DNA of 64,000 bases from an uncultured Actinomycetes bacterium (GCA_963843705.1 CAWJLQ010000010.1:489-64488), one strand, 5' to 3'; shown: positions 16,928-60,037, counted from the first letter of the stretch. The notes: generated by a model not told the origin, from the letters alone. A program made the numbers and translations.

Positions 16928-18376
16928 ATGGCTACTGGAACGCTCGTCGAGGTCGTCATGCCCCAGATGGGCGTGAGCGTCTCCGAGGGAACGATCACAC
17001 GCTGGACGAAGGCCGTCGGCGAGGCGATCGAGGCCGACGAGACGATCGTCGAGATCTCGACCGACAAGGTCGACACCGAGGTTCCGTCACCGGCCACGGG
17101 CGTGGTGCGCGAGCTCTTCGCCGGCGAGGGCGACACGGTGCCGGTGAACACGAAGATCGCCGTCATCGACACCGGCGGCGGCTCCGCCCCCGAGCCGGAG
17201 TCCGAGTCCGAGGGTGGTGGAGATGGAGCAGTGTCGGTGCCAGGCACCGGCGATAGCGCGAGTGAAAGCGGCGGCGAGGTCGCGGCTTCCGTGCCGGCCG
17301 GCGGCGACGAGGGACCGGTGCCCGGCACCCGCTCTGGGAGTGGCAATGGCGATGCCAACGGGCGGACGTTCGTGAGCCCGGTCGTGGCGCGCATGGTGGC
17401 CGAGCACGGCCTGGACATCGACCGCATTCCCGGCACCGGCCGCGGCGGCCGTGTGACGAAGAAGGACGTGCAGCAGTTCATCGAGTCGGGCGCGGCGGCT
17501 GCGCCCGCCCAGCCCGAGGTGCACGACGTGCCCCACTTCGCGCCGCCGCCCGAGGCGCCCGAGACCGCAGCCCCGGCGGCGCCGGCACCCGCTCCCCCGG
17601 CCGCGCCGGCGGAGCGCACCGTCGAGGTGGTCGCGGCAGGCGCGGCCGGCCCCGGCGAGGAGCTCTACCGCTTCAACACGATCCGCAAGGTGATCGCCCG
17701 GCACATGCGCCAATCGCTCGAGACGGCTGCCCAGGTGACGACGGTGATCGAGGTCGACATGACGGGCGTCGTCAACCTGCGCAAGAAGTGGAAGCCGGAG
17801 TACCAGCGCCGGTACGGCGTCAACCTGACCTACGTCCCGTTCGTCGCCCGCGCCACCATCGACGCCATCGGCCGCTGGCCGTGGGTGAACGCCGAGGTGA
17901 TGGAGGGGGGCGAGTCCGCCCTCGTGAAGCGGTACGTGAACCTGGGCATGGCGGTCGCCGTCGACGACGCCAAGGGCCTGATGGTGCCGGTGATCCACCA
18001 GGCCGAGGAGAAGAACCTCGTCGGCCTGTCGCGGTCCGTCATCGAGCTGGCGGACAAGGCGCGGACGAAGACTCTCACGAACGACGAGATGAGCGGCGCC
18101 ACGTTCACGATCACGAACCCGGGCGTCTTCGGCGCGCTGATCGGCACCCCGATCATCCCCGAGGGCCAGGTCGCGATCCTGGACGTGGAGGCGATCGTGA
18201 AGCGGCCGATGGTGGTCGCCGACGAGCACGGCAACGACGCGATCGCGATCCGGCACATGATGTTCCTGTGCCTCTCCTACGACCACCGGCTGGTCGACGG
18301 GGCCTACGCCGCCCAGTTCATGGCCCAGGTGAAGCAGAACCTGGAGTCCTGGGACGAGCACGCCTTCGGGCTCTAG
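16928..18376 (+). CDS. Dihydrolipoamide acyltransferase E2 (lipoyl domain + PSBD + catalytic domain)
   Basis: EISTDKVDTEVPSP lipoyl-Lys motif, Ala/Pro linkers, SPVVARMVAEHGLD, DHRLVDGA. SD AGGAGG upstream. Confidence 0.93.
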   Translation: MATGTLVEVVMPQMGVSVSEGTITRWTKAVGEAIEADETIVEISTDKVDTEVPSPATGVVRELFAGEGDTVPVNTKIAVIDTGGGSAPEPESESEGGGDGAVSVPGTGDSASESGGEVAASVPAGGDEGPVPGTRSGSGNGDANGRTFVSPVVARMVAEHGLDIDRIPGTGRGGRVTKKDVQQFIESGAAAAPAQPEVHDVPHFAPPPEAPETAAPAAPAPAPPAAPAERTVEVVAAGAAGPGEELYRFNTIRKVIARHMRQSLETAAQVTTVIEVDMTGVVNLRKKWKPEYQRRYGVNLTYVPFVARATIDAIGRWPWVNAEVMEGGESALVKRYVNLGMAVAVDDAKGLMVPVIHQAEEKNLVGLSRSVIELADKARTKTLTNDEMSGATFTITNPGVFGALIGTPIIPEGQVAILDVEAIVKRPMVVADEHGNDAIAIRHMMFLCLSYDHRLVDGAYAAQFMAQVKQNLESWDEHAFGL

Positions 18377-32207: not shown

Positions 32208-32776
32208 CGGCGGCGCAGCTTGCGGCGGCGGTCCGAAAGGCCGTGCCCGGATCCGTCGTCTCGCACGAGAAGGGCATCGACATGCCGACGCTGACCGTGA
32301 AGCCGGAGAAGCTCGTCGAGGTGTGCACCTACCTGCGCGATGAGCAGGGCAAGAACTTCCTCTCGGCAGTCTCGGCCGTCGACCACCTCGGCTACGGCGA
32401 CGAGGTGTCCGGCTACTTCGGCACGGAGCGCGGCCGCGACCTGAACGCGACCGGGAGCTGGGGCGCGGCCGAGACGCCGGCGCAGCCGCCGAAGCGCTTC
32501 GCCGTCCGCTACCACGTCGCCCACGTCGGCGACGGCCCGCCCGAGCGCGTGCGCGTGCAGGTGTGGCTGGACGACGGCCAGGAGGTGGCGAGCGTCGTCC
32601 CGGTGTGGCCGACGGCCGACTGGCACGAGCGCGAGCAGTACGACCTGATGGGCATCGTCTTCGCCGGCCATCCCAACCTGCGCCGGCTGATCCTGCCGAC
32701 CGACTGGGACGGCCATCCCCTGCGCAAGGACTATCCGATCGGCGGCGAGCCGGTCCAGTTCACGGACGCCGTATGA
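32204..32776 (+). CDS. nuoC: NADH-quinone oxidoreductase subunit C
   Basis: [18 protein letters not shown]; GTGA overlap with nuoB. Confidence 0.9.
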
Positions 32777-34035
32777 GCATCGTCGAGCGCCCACCCGCCC
32801 CGGTCGAGCCGCTCTACACGCCCGCGCGCATCCCGCCCGGCGCGCCGTCGAAGGTCGACCCGCCGCCGGGCGAGGATCTGATCACCGTCAACTTCGGGCC
32901 CAACCACCCGTCGACGCACGGGGTGCTGCGCCTGATCGTGACCCTCGACGGCGAGGTGGTCGTCGGCCTCGACGCCGACATCGGCTACGTCCACACCGGC
33001 TTCGAGAAGAACTTCGAGCAGAAGACCTACTGGAAGTGCATCCCGTACGCGCCGCGGATGGACTACGTCGCCTTCTTCGCGAACGAGCTGGCCTATGTCG
33101 GCGCCGTGGAGAAGCTGATCGGGATCGAGGTGCCGGAGCGGGCGCAGTGGATCCGCACGCTCTTCGCCGAGCTGAACCGCATCCACAGCCACCTCATCTA
33201 CCTGGGCACGTCCGGGGTCGAGATGGGCGCGATGTCGGTGTTCTTCTACTGCCTGCGCGAGCGCGACGCGGTGCTCGACCTGTTCGAGATGGCCACCGGC
33301 GTGCGCATGCACGACCGCTACCCGCAGATCGGCGGCGTGGCCGAGGACCTGCCGAAGGGCTTCTACGCCGAGTGCCGCAAATTCTGCGAGATGATGCCCA
33401 AGCGCATCGACGAGTACCTCGACCTCCTGGCCGGGAACCCGGTCTGGAAGTCGCGCTACCACGGCATCGGCGCCATCACGGCAGACACGGCGATCGCGAT
33501 GGGGCTGTCCGGCCCGAACCTGCGCGCGAGCGGCGTCGCCTACGACCTGCGCCGCGTCGAGCCCTACCTCGTCTACGACCAGGTGGACTTCGACGTCATC
33601 CTCGGCGAGCGCGGCGACGCCTACGACCGCTTCCTGTGCCGGACGAAGGAGATGTACGAGTCGGTCAGGATCATCGAGCAGTGCCTCGACAAGATGCCCT
33701 CCGGGCCGGTGATGGCGACCGATCGCAAGTACGTGCTGCCGCCGCGGGCGGAGCTGCACACGTCGATGGAGTCGCTGATCCACCACTTCAAGCTCGTCAC
33801 CGAGGGCTTCCGTGTGCCGCCCGGCCAGGTGTATTACCCGGTCGAGTCGCCGCGGGGCGAGTTCGGCTGCTACCTCGTCTCCGACGGCGGCCCGAAGCCG
33901 TGGCGGGTGCACTTCCGCGCGCCGAGCTTCGTCAGCCTGCAGGTGACGGCGATGATGTCGGTCAACCGCTACATCGGCGACATGATCGTCGTCGTCGGCT
34001 CGCTCGACGGCGTCATGGGCGAGGCGGACCGGTAA
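32773..34035 (+). CDS. nuoD: NADH-quinone oxidoreductase subunit D
   Basis: NFGPNHPSTHGVLRL, ESPRGEFG; ATGA overlap with nuoC. Confidence 0.95.
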   Translation: MSIVERPPAPVEPLYTPARIPPGAPSKVDPPPGEDLITVNFGPNHPSTHGVLRLIVTLDGEVVVGLDADIGYVHTGFEKNFEQKTYWKCIPYAPRMDYVAFFANELAYVGAVEKLIGIEVPERAQWIRTLFAELNRIHSHLIYLGTSGVEMGAMSVFFYCLRERDAVLDLFEMATGVRMHDRYPQIGGVAEDLPKGFYAECRKFCEMMPKRIDEYLDLLAGNPVWKSRYHGIGAITADTAIAMGLSGPNLRASGVAYDLRRVEPYLVYDQVDFDVILGERGDAYDRFLCRTKEMYESVRIIEQCLDKMPSGPVMATDRKYVLPPRAELHTSMESLIHHFKLVTEGFRVPPGQVYYPVESPRGEFGCYLVSDGGPKPWRVHFRAPSFVSLQVTAMMSVNRYIGDMIVVVGSLDGVMGEADR

Positions 34036-34176
34036 AGATGGTCGACTCCGAACTCAACGCGCGCCCGGACGCACGACGGTCAGACGCCAGTTCAGCCACT
34101 ATGGCCGCTTCCTGCGTCCTTGCGCCGCTCGGTTCTCGCCCCCCAGGACATCACGTGAATTCGGAGTCGACCATCT
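34036..34176 (+). repeat. 141-nt hairpin element with perfect 17-bp terminal inverted repeats, filling the nuoD-nuoE gap
   Basis: AGATGGTCGACTCCGAA (34036-52) and TTCGGAGTCGACCATCT (34160-76). Inner pair GGACGCA (34067-73) / TGCGTCC (34113-19). Confidence 0.85.
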
Positions 34177-34177
34177 A

Positions 34178-34732
34178 GTGGACCCGGCCACCGCAGAGAC
34201 GCTCCGCGGCGCGCTCGAGACGCGCCCCGACATGCCCGCGCCGCTGCCGCCGGACGACACGAGCGCGCCGCTGCGCGACCGCATCCTGGCCGTCGTCGCG
34301 CTCTACCCGGAGCCGCGCTCGGCGCTGATCCCGGCGTTGCGCCTGGCCCAGGAGGAGTACGGCTGGCTGACGACCGAGGCCTACGAGCTGGTGGCCGACG
34401 CGACCGGGTTCACACCCGCTCTCTGCAAGTCGGTGGCATCGTTCTACGACATGTTCCGGCTGCAGCCGGTGGGCCGGCACGAGATCTGCGTGTGCACCAA
34501 CATCTCGTGCGCGCTCGTCGGCGCCGGCGAGACGGTGCGCGCGTTCGAGCGCGAGCTCGGCATCCAGGCCGGCGAGACGACGGCCGACGGCGCCTTCACG
34601 CTGCGCACCGTCGAGTGCTACGGCGGCTGCGGCTGGGGCCCGGTCGTCTCGGTCGACGAGCGCTACCACGAGCCCTTCGGCCCCGACCGCGTGAAGCCGC
34701 TCGTGGACGAGCTGCGGGGCGACGCGGGATGA
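34178..34732 (+). CDS. nuoE: NADH-quinone oxidoreductase subunit E
   Basis: CTNISCALVGA...ECYGGCGWGP 2Fe-2S motif. Confidence 0.9.
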   Translation: MDPATAETLRGALETRPDMPAPLPPDDTSAPLRDRILAVVALYPEPRSALIPALRLAQEEYGWLTTEAYELVADATGFTPALCKSVASFYDMFRLQPVGRHEICVCTNISCALVGAGETVRAFERELGIQAGETTADGAFTLRTVECYGGCGWGPVVSVDERYHEPFGPDRVKPLVDELRGDAG

Positions 34733-58405: not shown

Positions 58406-58756
58406 TCAGGCCCCGGCCCGCTGCGGCCGGGGGTGGGACGGCTCGTACAGGCCGATCTCGCCGGCGCCCGGCACCGTGATCGTGGTGACGCGGCCCCACG
58501 ACTCCACGTGCACCGGTCCGACCGTGACGCCCTTCGCGCCGAGCTCTGCCGTGGTCGCGTCGAGGTCGTCGCACATCAGGTACAGGCGGTGCGTCCCCGA
58601 TGCACCGGGATGCAGGGCGAGCTCTCCCGGCGGGAGCGCGAAGATCAGCCAGCCCTGACCGGCGTCCACCGCCGGGAAGCCCAGCACGTCGCGGAAGAAC
58701 GCGCGCGCGGCGTCGGCGTCGTCGGCGAGGAGGATGGTGTGCGCACCGGTGATCAC
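58406..58756 (-). CDS. VOC / glyoxalase-family protein
   Basis: 116 aa; AARAFFRDVLGF...LALH...GEIGLYEP. Confidence 0.8.
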   Translation of the reverse strand: MITGAHTILLADDADAARAFFRDVLGFPAVDAGQGWLIFALPPGELALHPGASGTHRLYLMCDDLDATTAELGAKGVTVGPVHVESWGRVTTITVPGAGEIGLYEPSHPRPQRAGA

Positions 58757-58760
58757 GGGC

Positions 58761-58959
58761 AGATGGTTGACCCTACGCCCCTGTGTGGTCTGTGCGGTTG
58801 CGAACCGAGCAGCGCGCGGACGCAGGGAGCGTTCATCGTGGGCGAACTATGGGCGCGACTGAGGACGCAGCGATGCGACGGTTCGCAACCGCAGCCCCAC
58901 CAACGCCCATACCGCGCCAACGGCCTGATGTCCAGACGCCCGGGTGGAATCAACCATCT
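58761..58959. repeat. 199-nt hairpin element between ychF and the VOC gene, same family as 34036-34176
   Basis: Outer IR AGATGGTTGA (58761-70) / TCAACCATCT (58950-59). Inner perfect 15-bp IR TGCGGTTGCGAACCG (58793-807) / CGGTTCGCAACCGCA (58879-93). Ends and core match the nuoD-nuoE element. Confidence 0.8.
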
Positions 58960-60037
58960 AGACGTTGAAGCGGATGTTCATGACGTCGCCGTCCTGCACG
59001 AGGTAGTCACGGCCCTCGACCCGCATCCACCCGTGCCGCTTGGCCTCGGCCTCCGAGCCGGCCTCGACCAGCTTCTGCCACTCGATCACCTCCGCCCGGA
59101 TGAACCCGCGCTCCAGGTCGGAGTGGATGCGGCCGGCCGCCTGCTGGGCGTTCTGGCCGCGGCGGATCGTCCACGCCCGCGTCTCCTTCGGGCCGGTCGT
59201 GAAGAAGGGGATCAGGTCGAGCAGCCGGTAGGCGGCCAGGGTGACGCGGTCGAGCGCCGGCCGCTCGATGCCCAGCTCCTCCAGGAACGCTGCGGCGTCC
59301 TCGTCGGGCAGCTCGCGCAGCTCGGCCTCGATCTTGGCGTTCAGCGCGATGCACTCGGTCCCGCGTTCGGCGGCGAACGCGGCCACCGCCTCGAGCTGGG
59401 CGGGATCGGGGTCGTCGCCGGTGTTGGCGACGTAGAGCGCCGGCTTGGCGGTGAGCAGGTCGACCGAGTCCGGGATCTCGACGCCGCTCGTCCGCGCCGG
59501 GCGGCCGTCCTCGAGCCACGCCGCCAGCCGCTCGAGCGCCTCGTGCTCGGCCGCCGCCGCCTTCTCGCCGCCCTTGGCCGCCTTGGCGACCCGCTCGGCC
59601 CGCCGCTCGATGGCGGCGAGGTCGGCGAACACCAGCTCGAGCTCGACCGTCTCGGCGTCCTCCTGCGGGTCGATCGCGCCCGACGGGTGGGCGACGGTCT
59701 CGTCCCCGAAGCAGCGCAGGACGTGGACGACGGCGTCGGTGTTGCGCAGGCTGCCGAGGAACTGGTTGCCGAGGCCCTCCCCCTGCGAGGCCCCGCGCAC
59801 GAGCGCAGCGATGTCGACCACCTCGAGCGTGGCCGGCACGATCTTCCCGGAGCGCGAGCTGGAGACGGCGTCGAGCGCCTCCAGCCGCGGATCGCGGACG
59901 TCGGCCACCCCGTGCACCGTCTCGACCGTCGAGAACATGTGCGGGGCGACGGTGGCGCCGCCGCCGGTGAGGGCGTTGAAGAGTGTCGAGCGGCCGCTGT
60001 TCGGCAGCCCGACCAGACCGACCTCGACGCCAGCCAT
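58958..60037 (-). CDS. ychF: Ribosome-binding ATPase YchF
   Basis: GLVGLPNSGRSTLFNALT and C-terminal YLVQDGDVMNIRFNV. Confidence 0.95.
   Translation of the reverse strand: MAGVEVGLVGLPNSGRSTLFNALTGGGATVAPHMFSTVETVHGVADVRDPRLEALDAVSSSRSGKIVPATLEVVDIAALVRGASQGEGLGNQFLGSLRNTDAVVHVLRCFGDETVAHPSGAIDPQEDAETVELELVFADLAAIERRAERVAKAAKGGEKAAAAEHEALERLAAWLEDGRPARTSGVEIPDSVDLLTAKPALYVANTGDDPDPAQLEAVAAFAAERGTECIALNAKIEAELRELPDEDAAAFLEELGIERPALDRVTLAAYRLLDLIPFFTTGPKETRAWTIRRGQNAQQAAGRIHSDLERGFIRAEVIEWQKLVEAGSEAEAKRHGWMRVEGRDYLVQDGDVMNIRFNV

Follow-up and report, generated by a model that had tools for sequence, protein, structure and literature searches.

The hairpin element of 199 nt between ychF and a VOC-family gene (copy A, 58761-58959) and a second one of 141 nt between nuoD and nuoE (copy B, 34036-34176) are divergent members of one dispersed family, which this work identifies as a previously undescribed miniature transposable element, abundant in soil Thermoleophilia (positions refer to the window, i.e., the whole stretch of 64,000 nt analysed). 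Its units are short (141-201 nt) and have neither a transposase nor conserved coding capacity, they are bounded by terminal inverted repeats (TIRs; 10 perfect nucleotides in copy A and 17 in copy B) and flanked by TA, mostly within CTAG, and their many dispersed copies differ in presence or absence between relatives. These are the properties of a MITE, and a non-autonomous MITE is very probably what the family is. An earlier note on this DNA had argued, from the occurrence of two related copies in 64 kb, for a dispersed repeat or structured RNA family rather than a one-off hairpin. The repeat family and its dispersal stand, since the similarity of the ends recurs in more than 200 further copies, whilst the RNA part of the claim gives way to a mobile MITE instead of a dedicated RNA gene.

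The two copies and their host genes

Copy A was recognised both by its TIR pattern and by a match to the nhmmer profile of the family (minus strand, E 1.8e-6), and is an old member of a subfamily of about 200 nt. Its arm adjoining ychF, TCAACCATCT on the plus strand (58950-58959), is the 5′ end of the copy in family orientation and does not vary in the family alignment, an invariance partly imposed by the search pattern. The arm adjoining the VOC gene, AGATGGTTGA on the plus strand (58761-58770), forms with it a perfect outer repeat of 10 nt and is decayed beyond these (GACCC against GATTCC in its partner). Further inside lies a perfect inner repeat of 15 nt (58793-58807 with 58879-58893), a stem extension specific to the ~200-nt subfamily and present as an insertion also in the copies L024, L076, L014 and L009, and ACGCCC occurs at three sites (58775, 58903 and 58936); all these counts had been given in the earlier note and are confirmed.

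Upstream of copy A is ychF (58958-60037, minus strand), coding for the ribosome-binding ATPase, with Pfam domains PF01926 and PF06071 on an identical product and homologues named YchF; downstream is a gene of the VOC/glyoxalase family (58406-58756, minus strand), with a weak PF00903 match on its product. The ychF stop TAG, the complement of 58958-58960, overlaps the last two bases of the copy and consists of the flanking TA and the first base of the element core. The VOC start, GTG at 58754-58756, does adjoin the copy, as had been noted, with a spacer of 4 nt in between (58757-58760). A scan around copy A found no promoter-like or terminator-like sites. The organism of the window is placed in Gaiellales by its YchF and NuoE homologues.

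Copy B, which matches both the TIR pattern and the family profile (plus strand, E 4e-7), has a perfect terminal repeat of 17 nt and is a derivative of the ~200-nt subfamily with about 60 nt of its left arm deleted. Its host genes, both on the plus strand, are nuoD (32773-34035, with the stop TAA at 34033-34035, the start predicted from 420-aa orthologues, and PF00346 on orthologues) and nuoE (34178-34732, with a GTG start at 34178, and PF01257 and the name NuoE on its homologues). An open frame of 46 codons spans the element (34038-34178, plus strand), from an ATG 2 nt past the nuoD TAA to a TAG overlapping the nuoE GTG; judged by sequence comparison, it is a by-product of the TIR and not a conserved protein. 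The NuoE of the window, used as a protein query, had no 100% self-match (best 89%), and the YchF of the window was found exactly on an ENA contig; in the source assembly, a different start for NuoE might have been called beside copy B.

Between them, the two copies share 47 nt at 81% identity (BLAST E 3e-7) and are about 60% identical over the aligned columns. The end matches reported earlier, 11 of 13 and 11 of 12 positions, are correct by direct reading. The motifs GCGCGC..GGACGCA and ACTATGG are present in both copies too, but they had been read plus against plus, whereas the true homology is between nuo(+) and ychF(-), with a global alignment score of 69.5 compared to 33; motifs are shared plus against plus because each element is a fold-back carrying the complement of the motif on its other arm. 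In the homologous orientation, both copies are thus sense to their host genes. That the two are alike by chance, in sequence so rich in GC, could only be entertained because their interiors agree so modestly; against this, the pattern of two TIRs plus spacer occurs in the 64-kb window as copies A and B only, with 0.00 expected in 100 shuffles, the BLAST match between them is strong, and both match a profile made from 92 other copies, copy B on the plus and copy A on the minus strand and nothing else in the window. Moreover, each is closer to a copy from another genome, both of these being of the ~200-nt subfamily (80% identity of copy A to L024, 77% of copy B to L076). Chance resemblance is refuted and deserves practically no credence.

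The family, its target site and its insertions

Two scans were made for the family. The reference scan, over one genome per GTDB species with the pattern AGATGGTYGAY..RTCRACCATCT, by which the terminal A and T are forced, gave at least 120 loci; nearly all the named matches listed are Thermoleophilia MAGs, and the hosts among the matches listed include Gaiellales, Gaiellaceae, Solirubrobacterales, Conexibacter and Thermoleophilaceae. The replicate scan, over JGI metagenomes with GATGGTTGAT..ATCAACCATC, where nothing outside the core is forced, gave at least 120 further loci, with 100 profile matches and 98 family copies usable for flanks. Together they amount to at least 240 loci, and about 200 copies form one family. 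Of 122 TIR-bounded units in the reference scan, 101 fell into a single BLAST cluster, without one orientation conflict in 588 edges, and 92 canonical copies served to build the nhmmer profile. Family members are mostly 165-168 nt long (modal lengths 168, 165, 167 and 166), with the consensus ends CTAGATGGTTGAT...ATCAACCATCTAG, TIRs of 11-20 bp (AGATGGTTGAT...) and a first helix of 19 pairs, 97% paired. In the literature searched, neither an account of AGATGGTTGAT as an element of this kind nor one of Thermoleophilia MITEs was found. Matches to the core pattern on low-GC JGI contigs packed with tandem or interspersed repeats that resemble GATGGTAGATGATGAGACAGATAA (L140, L159, L203, L216, L211 and L243) are unrelated and were left outside the family.

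The repeat arms are shared by some smaller families as well. One of these, seen in an Acidimicrobiales MAG of 42% GC (MAG-167; L071 2078-3660) and also at L021 and L045, is a separate family of 174-177 nt with the same TIR and CT..AG flanks. At L071, a purB-like gene has a solo left end on its TAG stop; a full copy lies 1.4 kb away, and the two bracket a 310-aa M14-peptidase-like ORF in a composite-transposon-like arrangement. Elsewhere, a truncated copy stands head to tail with a full copy, one CTAG being common to both (L067 1839-2016), and two inverted copies on the same contig, 2.4 kb apart, are 98.8% identical (L065 and L101).

The finished ends of the element read CTAGATGG...CCATCTAG. 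In the reference copies, where the terminal A and T are forced, the left flank is CT in 59/101 and the right flank AG in 71/101, whilst the unforced JGI copies have TA on the left in 71/98 (72%), on the right in 76/98 (78%) and on both sides in 55/98, mostly as CTA...TAG. A duplicated TA would give the same sequence as an element that itself begins with A and ends with T and had entered between the T and the A of the target. IS630 makes a 2-bp duplication within a CTAG target (PMC2577343 Table 1; Tenzen & Ohtsubo 1991, as cited in a passage of PMC2170065), and the junctions that are one base short here, C/AGATGG and CCATCT/G, agree with the in vitro products of ISY100, which have TA on one side and A alone on the other (PMC2170065).

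CTAG itself is scarce in the 64-kb window: base composition predicts 160 sites and a second-order Markov model 64, but 16 occur (4953, 6041, 18373, 21204, 22429, 23330, 31219, 34175, 45944, 47071, 50506, 53712, 55853, 57603, 57676 and 58958). At least six of them are TAG stop codons and two are element junctions; the natural junctions at 18373 and 53712 read CTAGATG, resembling the element end. Since CTAG is scarce and many of the remaining sites are TAG stops, insertions accumulate exactly on stop codons, and since the duplicated TA and the terminal G of the element remake TAG, the upstream protein is unchanged. With gene contexts taken from a purpose-made, simple GC3-based gene finder that is not validated, the junction TAG was the stop of the abutting gene in 30/50 upstream co-directional cases of the reference scan (20/39 in the JGI replicate) and in 18/30 downstream convergent cases (18/27 in the replicate).

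Elsewhere in the family, mobility is recent. Copies from the same genome on different contigs are 98-99% identical; the near-identical copies L012, L067 and L078 (CAWASP) were checked for their flanks, which are different, and the pairs L018/L095, L060/L102 and L065/L101 are just as similar. Young copies, 99% identical, also occur in MFD02416.bin.2.159, and carriers include the complete Thermoleophilia chromosomes OY970157.1, OY969915.1 and OY969106.1 and a 4.28-Mb contig of ERZ25039538. One canonical copy (L108 5455-5660) has a direct duplication of 16 nt outside its CTAGs (GGCGACTGGCAAATCT / GGCGACTAGCAAATCT), which is the 3′ end of the upstream gene and far longer than the usual TA.

As for the window, the comparison with orthologous loci lacking the element, which the earlier note had proposed, found both sites empty in close relatives; these were obtained via YchF and NuoE homologues, there being no orthologous sites among the 120 reference-genome loci. 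At ychF-VOC, the relatives L122-L127 are empty and read GTCTGA/TGATCACG (YchF 94% identical), GTGTGAGCAGTGATC (90%) or GTCTGAGGCATGATCCGGCCGTGATC (88%), their ychF and VOC genes overlap or lie 3-14 nt apart and their ychF stop is TGA, compared to GTCTAG[ATGG...CCATCT]GCCCGTGATC in the filled site of the window. At nuoD-nuoE, the relatives L128-L130 are empty and read CGGTAGTGGACC, where TAG overlaps GTG, or CGGTGATGGACC, compared to CGGTAA[AGATGG...CCATCT]AGTGGACC in the window; the site has thereby gone from CGGTAGTGG to CGGTA..TAGTGG. Because four relatives without the element (YchF 87-94% identical) have TGA at the same codon, the ychF TAG of the window derives from the insertion, so that copy A indeed supplies part of this stop, as had been claimed. 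Likewise, the exact filling of the gap by both copies is borne out: they inserted at junctions whose genes had at first overlapped or lain almost end to end. The junctions of the two copies are slightly imperfect, with two extra A on the left of copy B and T for TA on the VOC side of copy A; in addition, the ychF of the relatives ends in TGA and not in a TAG that contains TA. These departures weigh against the MITE reading, but they fit old copies.

The history that explains all this best is as follows. An element that folds back over its whole length and codes for no protein inserts at TA, with a strong preference for the palindrome CTAG. As CTAG is depleted about ten-fold in the genome, with remaining sites often being TAG stops, insertions fall onto stops, and restoration of TAG by the duplicated TA and the terminal G keeps the upstream product. 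Copies A and B landed where the genes of the pairs ychF/VOC and nuoD/nuoE had overlapped or all but abutted, and moved the genes of each pair 141-203 nt apart; as hairpins they would now be carried within the operon transcript. Copy A is very probably a decayed MITE and copy B a second copy minus about 60 nt of one arm. Both are probably still co-transcribed with their host genes, and the ATG of the left repeat and the TAG of the right junction may help ribosomes to cross the insert.

Mobilisation, coding frames and the strand-asymmetric fold

TA duplication and CTAG preference are both characteristics of IS630/Tc1-mariner elements, and a DDE transposase of this type, which duplicates TA, is suggested to mobilise the element in trans, a class read from the target site alone. 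We lean towards an IS630-type enzyme as the one that moves the element, an IS5-group enzyme being the alternative. No autonomous element combining these TIRs with a transposase was found in about 1.6 Mb around the copies, nor any autonomous partner by blastn against plasmids (PLSDB); similarly, the solo repeat ends in the loci, the long ORFs around the copies that end in ..STI and a stop, and pairs of repeats spaced by 600-3000 nt, under exact as well as relaxed matching, gave no transposase. Two candidates for an autonomous element were discarded, L071 2078-3659 because it brackets the peptidase-like ORF and L229 because it is an unrelated repeat array. An IS110/bridge-RNA-like reading with a CT core was dropped, since IS110-type elements have no TIRs, and so was an integron attC reading, the ends being a misfit to RYYYAAC/GTTRRRY and the copies lying between core genes.

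The repeat arm sets an ATG right after TAG and ATC-TAG at the far end, so that about half of the copies have an exact ATG..TAG frame (49/101 in the reference and 51/93 in the replicate set). In addition, the length is divisible by three in 124/201 copies, with 165 and 168 nt dominating and putting ATG and TAG in frame, an excess that looks like a property of the founder lineages. One could take these frequencies, together with the exact 46-codon frame of copy B and its TAG overlapping the nuoE GTG, as signs of a mini-ORF selected to keep the translational coupling of the separated genes, as proposed for mycobacterial MIRUs, all the more so as full frames make up 67% of sense, operon-like contexts compared to 48% elsewhere (pooled p 0.036). 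This enrichment, however, was weak in the first data set (p 0.03) and was not replicated in the second alone (p 0.45), and the frame of copy A that opens with ATG ends after 36 codons. Frame openness, at 66, equals the dinucleotide-shuffle expectation (61±4.4), indels between nearest relatives are multiples of three in 23/85, without bias, substitutions by codon position show no third-position excess (1424/1393/1229 family-wide), and the encoded peptides are not conserved. Codon periodicity, frame openness and indel phase, taken over the whole family, accordingly lead us to reject a small protein-coding gene, and a selected mini-ORF seems highly improbable.

The fold is a different matter. On the better-folding strand of the fold-back, 92% of the cells are paired, falling to 31-41% when the partners are slid, and there are 881 double-change cells compared to 327 in shuffles; compensatory change is seen in 35/45 pairs and in every helix beyond the invariant ends. 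On the forward strand, i.e., nuo(+)/ychF(-), fold-back mismatches are A·C in 722 cases and G·T in 212 (658 and 223 in the replicate) and unpaired positions are rich in C (1953, against 474 G). The more stable fold is that of the reverse strand in 99/101 copies and, in the replicate, in 95/100, at a mean of -119 compared to -95 kcal/mol, an advantage of about 22-24 kcal/mol gained via G·U pairs. The forward, weaker-folding strand tends to be sense to co-directional flanking genes (42 vs 17, p 0.0015), and is so in copies A and B, where the better-folding strand is antisense to the host genes; selection may, plausibly, disfavour hairpins of great stability within operon mRNAs. Such strand asymmetry is not predicted by double-stranded cut-and-paste transposition, and counts against the MITE reading. 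Given the G·U and G·A pairs, the purine-rich loops and the compensatory changes, one strand might be under selection to fold, either as a functional RNA that hundreds of loci produce or as a strand-specific, single-stranded transposition intermediate, which we regard as rather unlikely. If true, a single-stranded intermediate in spite of TIRs and TA flanks would be a new mode of mobilisation for a TIR/TA element.

Were a structured RNA function (for example antisense, regulatory or as a substrate of RNase III) the main role of the element and its spread secondary, with selection on its well-folding strand, one would understand the rod-like fold preserved by compensatory changes, the near-constant identity of the better-folding strand, the prevalence on it of mismatches of the G·U type in both data sets and its unpaired positions, rich in G and A and poor in C as in real RNAs. 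But copies occur in both orientations and the well-folding strand is antisense to co-directional genes in 42/59, so that most copies would need a promoter of their own, and neither promoter-like nor terminator-like sites were seen around copy A. Nor is there an Rfam family: the check for a known RNA such as 6S, which the earlier note had called for, gave nothing at gathering thresholds over the whole window (Rfam 15), no match for a canonical copy at E up to 1, and at E up to 10 no more than 14 bits for copy A, against a gathering score of 50. The TA/CTAG flanks, the near-identical copies within genomes and the empty sites show spread by transposition, and compensatory change can also come from conversion between copies. 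Altogether, a primary RNA function is quite improbable. The element also changes unusually fast. On one contig (ENA ERZ25039539 contig_12521; L001 11079-11278), it is 95.5% identical to copy A (8 mismatches and 1 gap) whereas identity is 99.8-99.9% in ychF and over 3 kb upstream, and two of the changes are compensatory ones in the stem, from T:A to C:G; divergence confined to the element suggests conversion between copies, strain mixture, or an assembly or polishing artefact at the hairpin.

The same asymmetry, along with the whole-length hairpin, might instead mark the transposed strand of an element moving as single-stranded DNA by a strand-specific enzyme, in the manner of REPIN/RAYT or IS200/IS605; CT does precede the element and is also its last two bases, and no DDE partner turned up in the ~1.6 Mb around the copies or in plasmids. 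Such an enzyme would be hard to reconcile with inverted repeats of perfect symmetry at the termini, each side having the palindromic CTAG/TA, and with equal conservation of the left and right flanks; IS200/IS605 elements have no TIRs, and the GTAG or CGTC tags carried by REPs (PMC3733652) are absent here. Moreover, copies A and B lie 25 kb apart in opposite orientations, so that orientation does not track the direction of replication. Single-stranded movement is therefore very unlikely, and we retain the non-autonomous MITE as the best explanation.

Known systems compared and significance

The closest systems are IS630/IS870-type targeting and the miniature insertion sequences ERIC and YPAL of enterobacteria, with Correia elements, REPINs and MIRUs as more distant analogues. 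The family resembles IS630/IS870 and the MITEs derived from them in its insertion at TA, strong CTAG preference and 2-bp duplication (PMC2577343 Table 1; PMC2170065), ISY100 in its aberrant junctions with one base of TA (PMC2170065), and IS870 in the target TAG that becomes a stop codon at the element end, IS870 needing CTAG so that the target TAG closes its ORF (as cited in passages of PMC13630536). It differs from IS630/IS870 in that no transposase gene or autonomous partner was found around its copies, and in its whole-length, strand-asymmetric fold-back. ERIC (RU-1, 127 bp) and YPAL (RU-2), the latter with just the 168 bp common here, are equally small, with TIRs, a stable long stem-loop, TA ends with duplication and open frames across the unit, and lie next to or are fused with genes (PMC2759123). 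There is, however, no sequence relationship, and the family here belongs to another phylum (Thermoleophilia, 65-72% GC). The effect of ERIC/YPAL on upstream mRNA depends on orientation. Two further features, the targeting of CTAG and stop codons and the 3:1 surplus, on one strand, of G·U-type over A·C-type mismatches, are measurements of this work and do not come from the ERIC/YPAL papers.

The Correia elements of Neisseria are abundant MITEs of 100-160 bp, with terminal repeats and TA duplication, which are co-transcribed with their neighbours; we know of no cognate transposase for them, and their interiors are not known to form a continuous fold-back and carry IHF sites and promoter elements. 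REPIN/RAYT systems share with this family the abundant long hairpins, two inverted conserved ends, a variable but compensating middle and a frequent position at gene 3′ ends. REPs are not known to give a target duplication, however, whereas the ends here (CTAGATGGTTGAT, or CTAGATGG when finished) have TA on both sides and none of the REP tags, and no RAYT gene was seen. MIRUs, finally, are intergenic units in operons, oriented with the genes and with small ORFs overlapping the stop and start codons of their neighbours; they are tandem direct repeats of 46-101 bp and are not known to have TIRs, whereas the present insertions are single units, each with inverted repeats at its two ends.

Thermoleophilia (Gaiellales, Solirubrobacterales), which abound in soil, are known almost solely from metagenome bins. 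Hundreds of ~165-nt hairpins lying on their stop codons and in their operons will lead gene callers astray, about half of the copies carrying a spurious ORF of 54-66 codons, and will likewise confound operon prediction and the search for non-coding RNA. The family may also cause errors in assembly or polishing, and is a ready presence/absence marker for strain typing in Thermoleophilia lineages. It provides, in addition, a clean natural case of a scarce palindrome, CTAG, steering a transposon onto stop codons that the transposon's own ends repair, so that an insert is tolerated even between nuoD and nuoE of complex I. All told, the family is a genuine genomic parasite of a rather common sort, and if any one of its features could open new ground, it is the covarying fold with its strand asymmetry.
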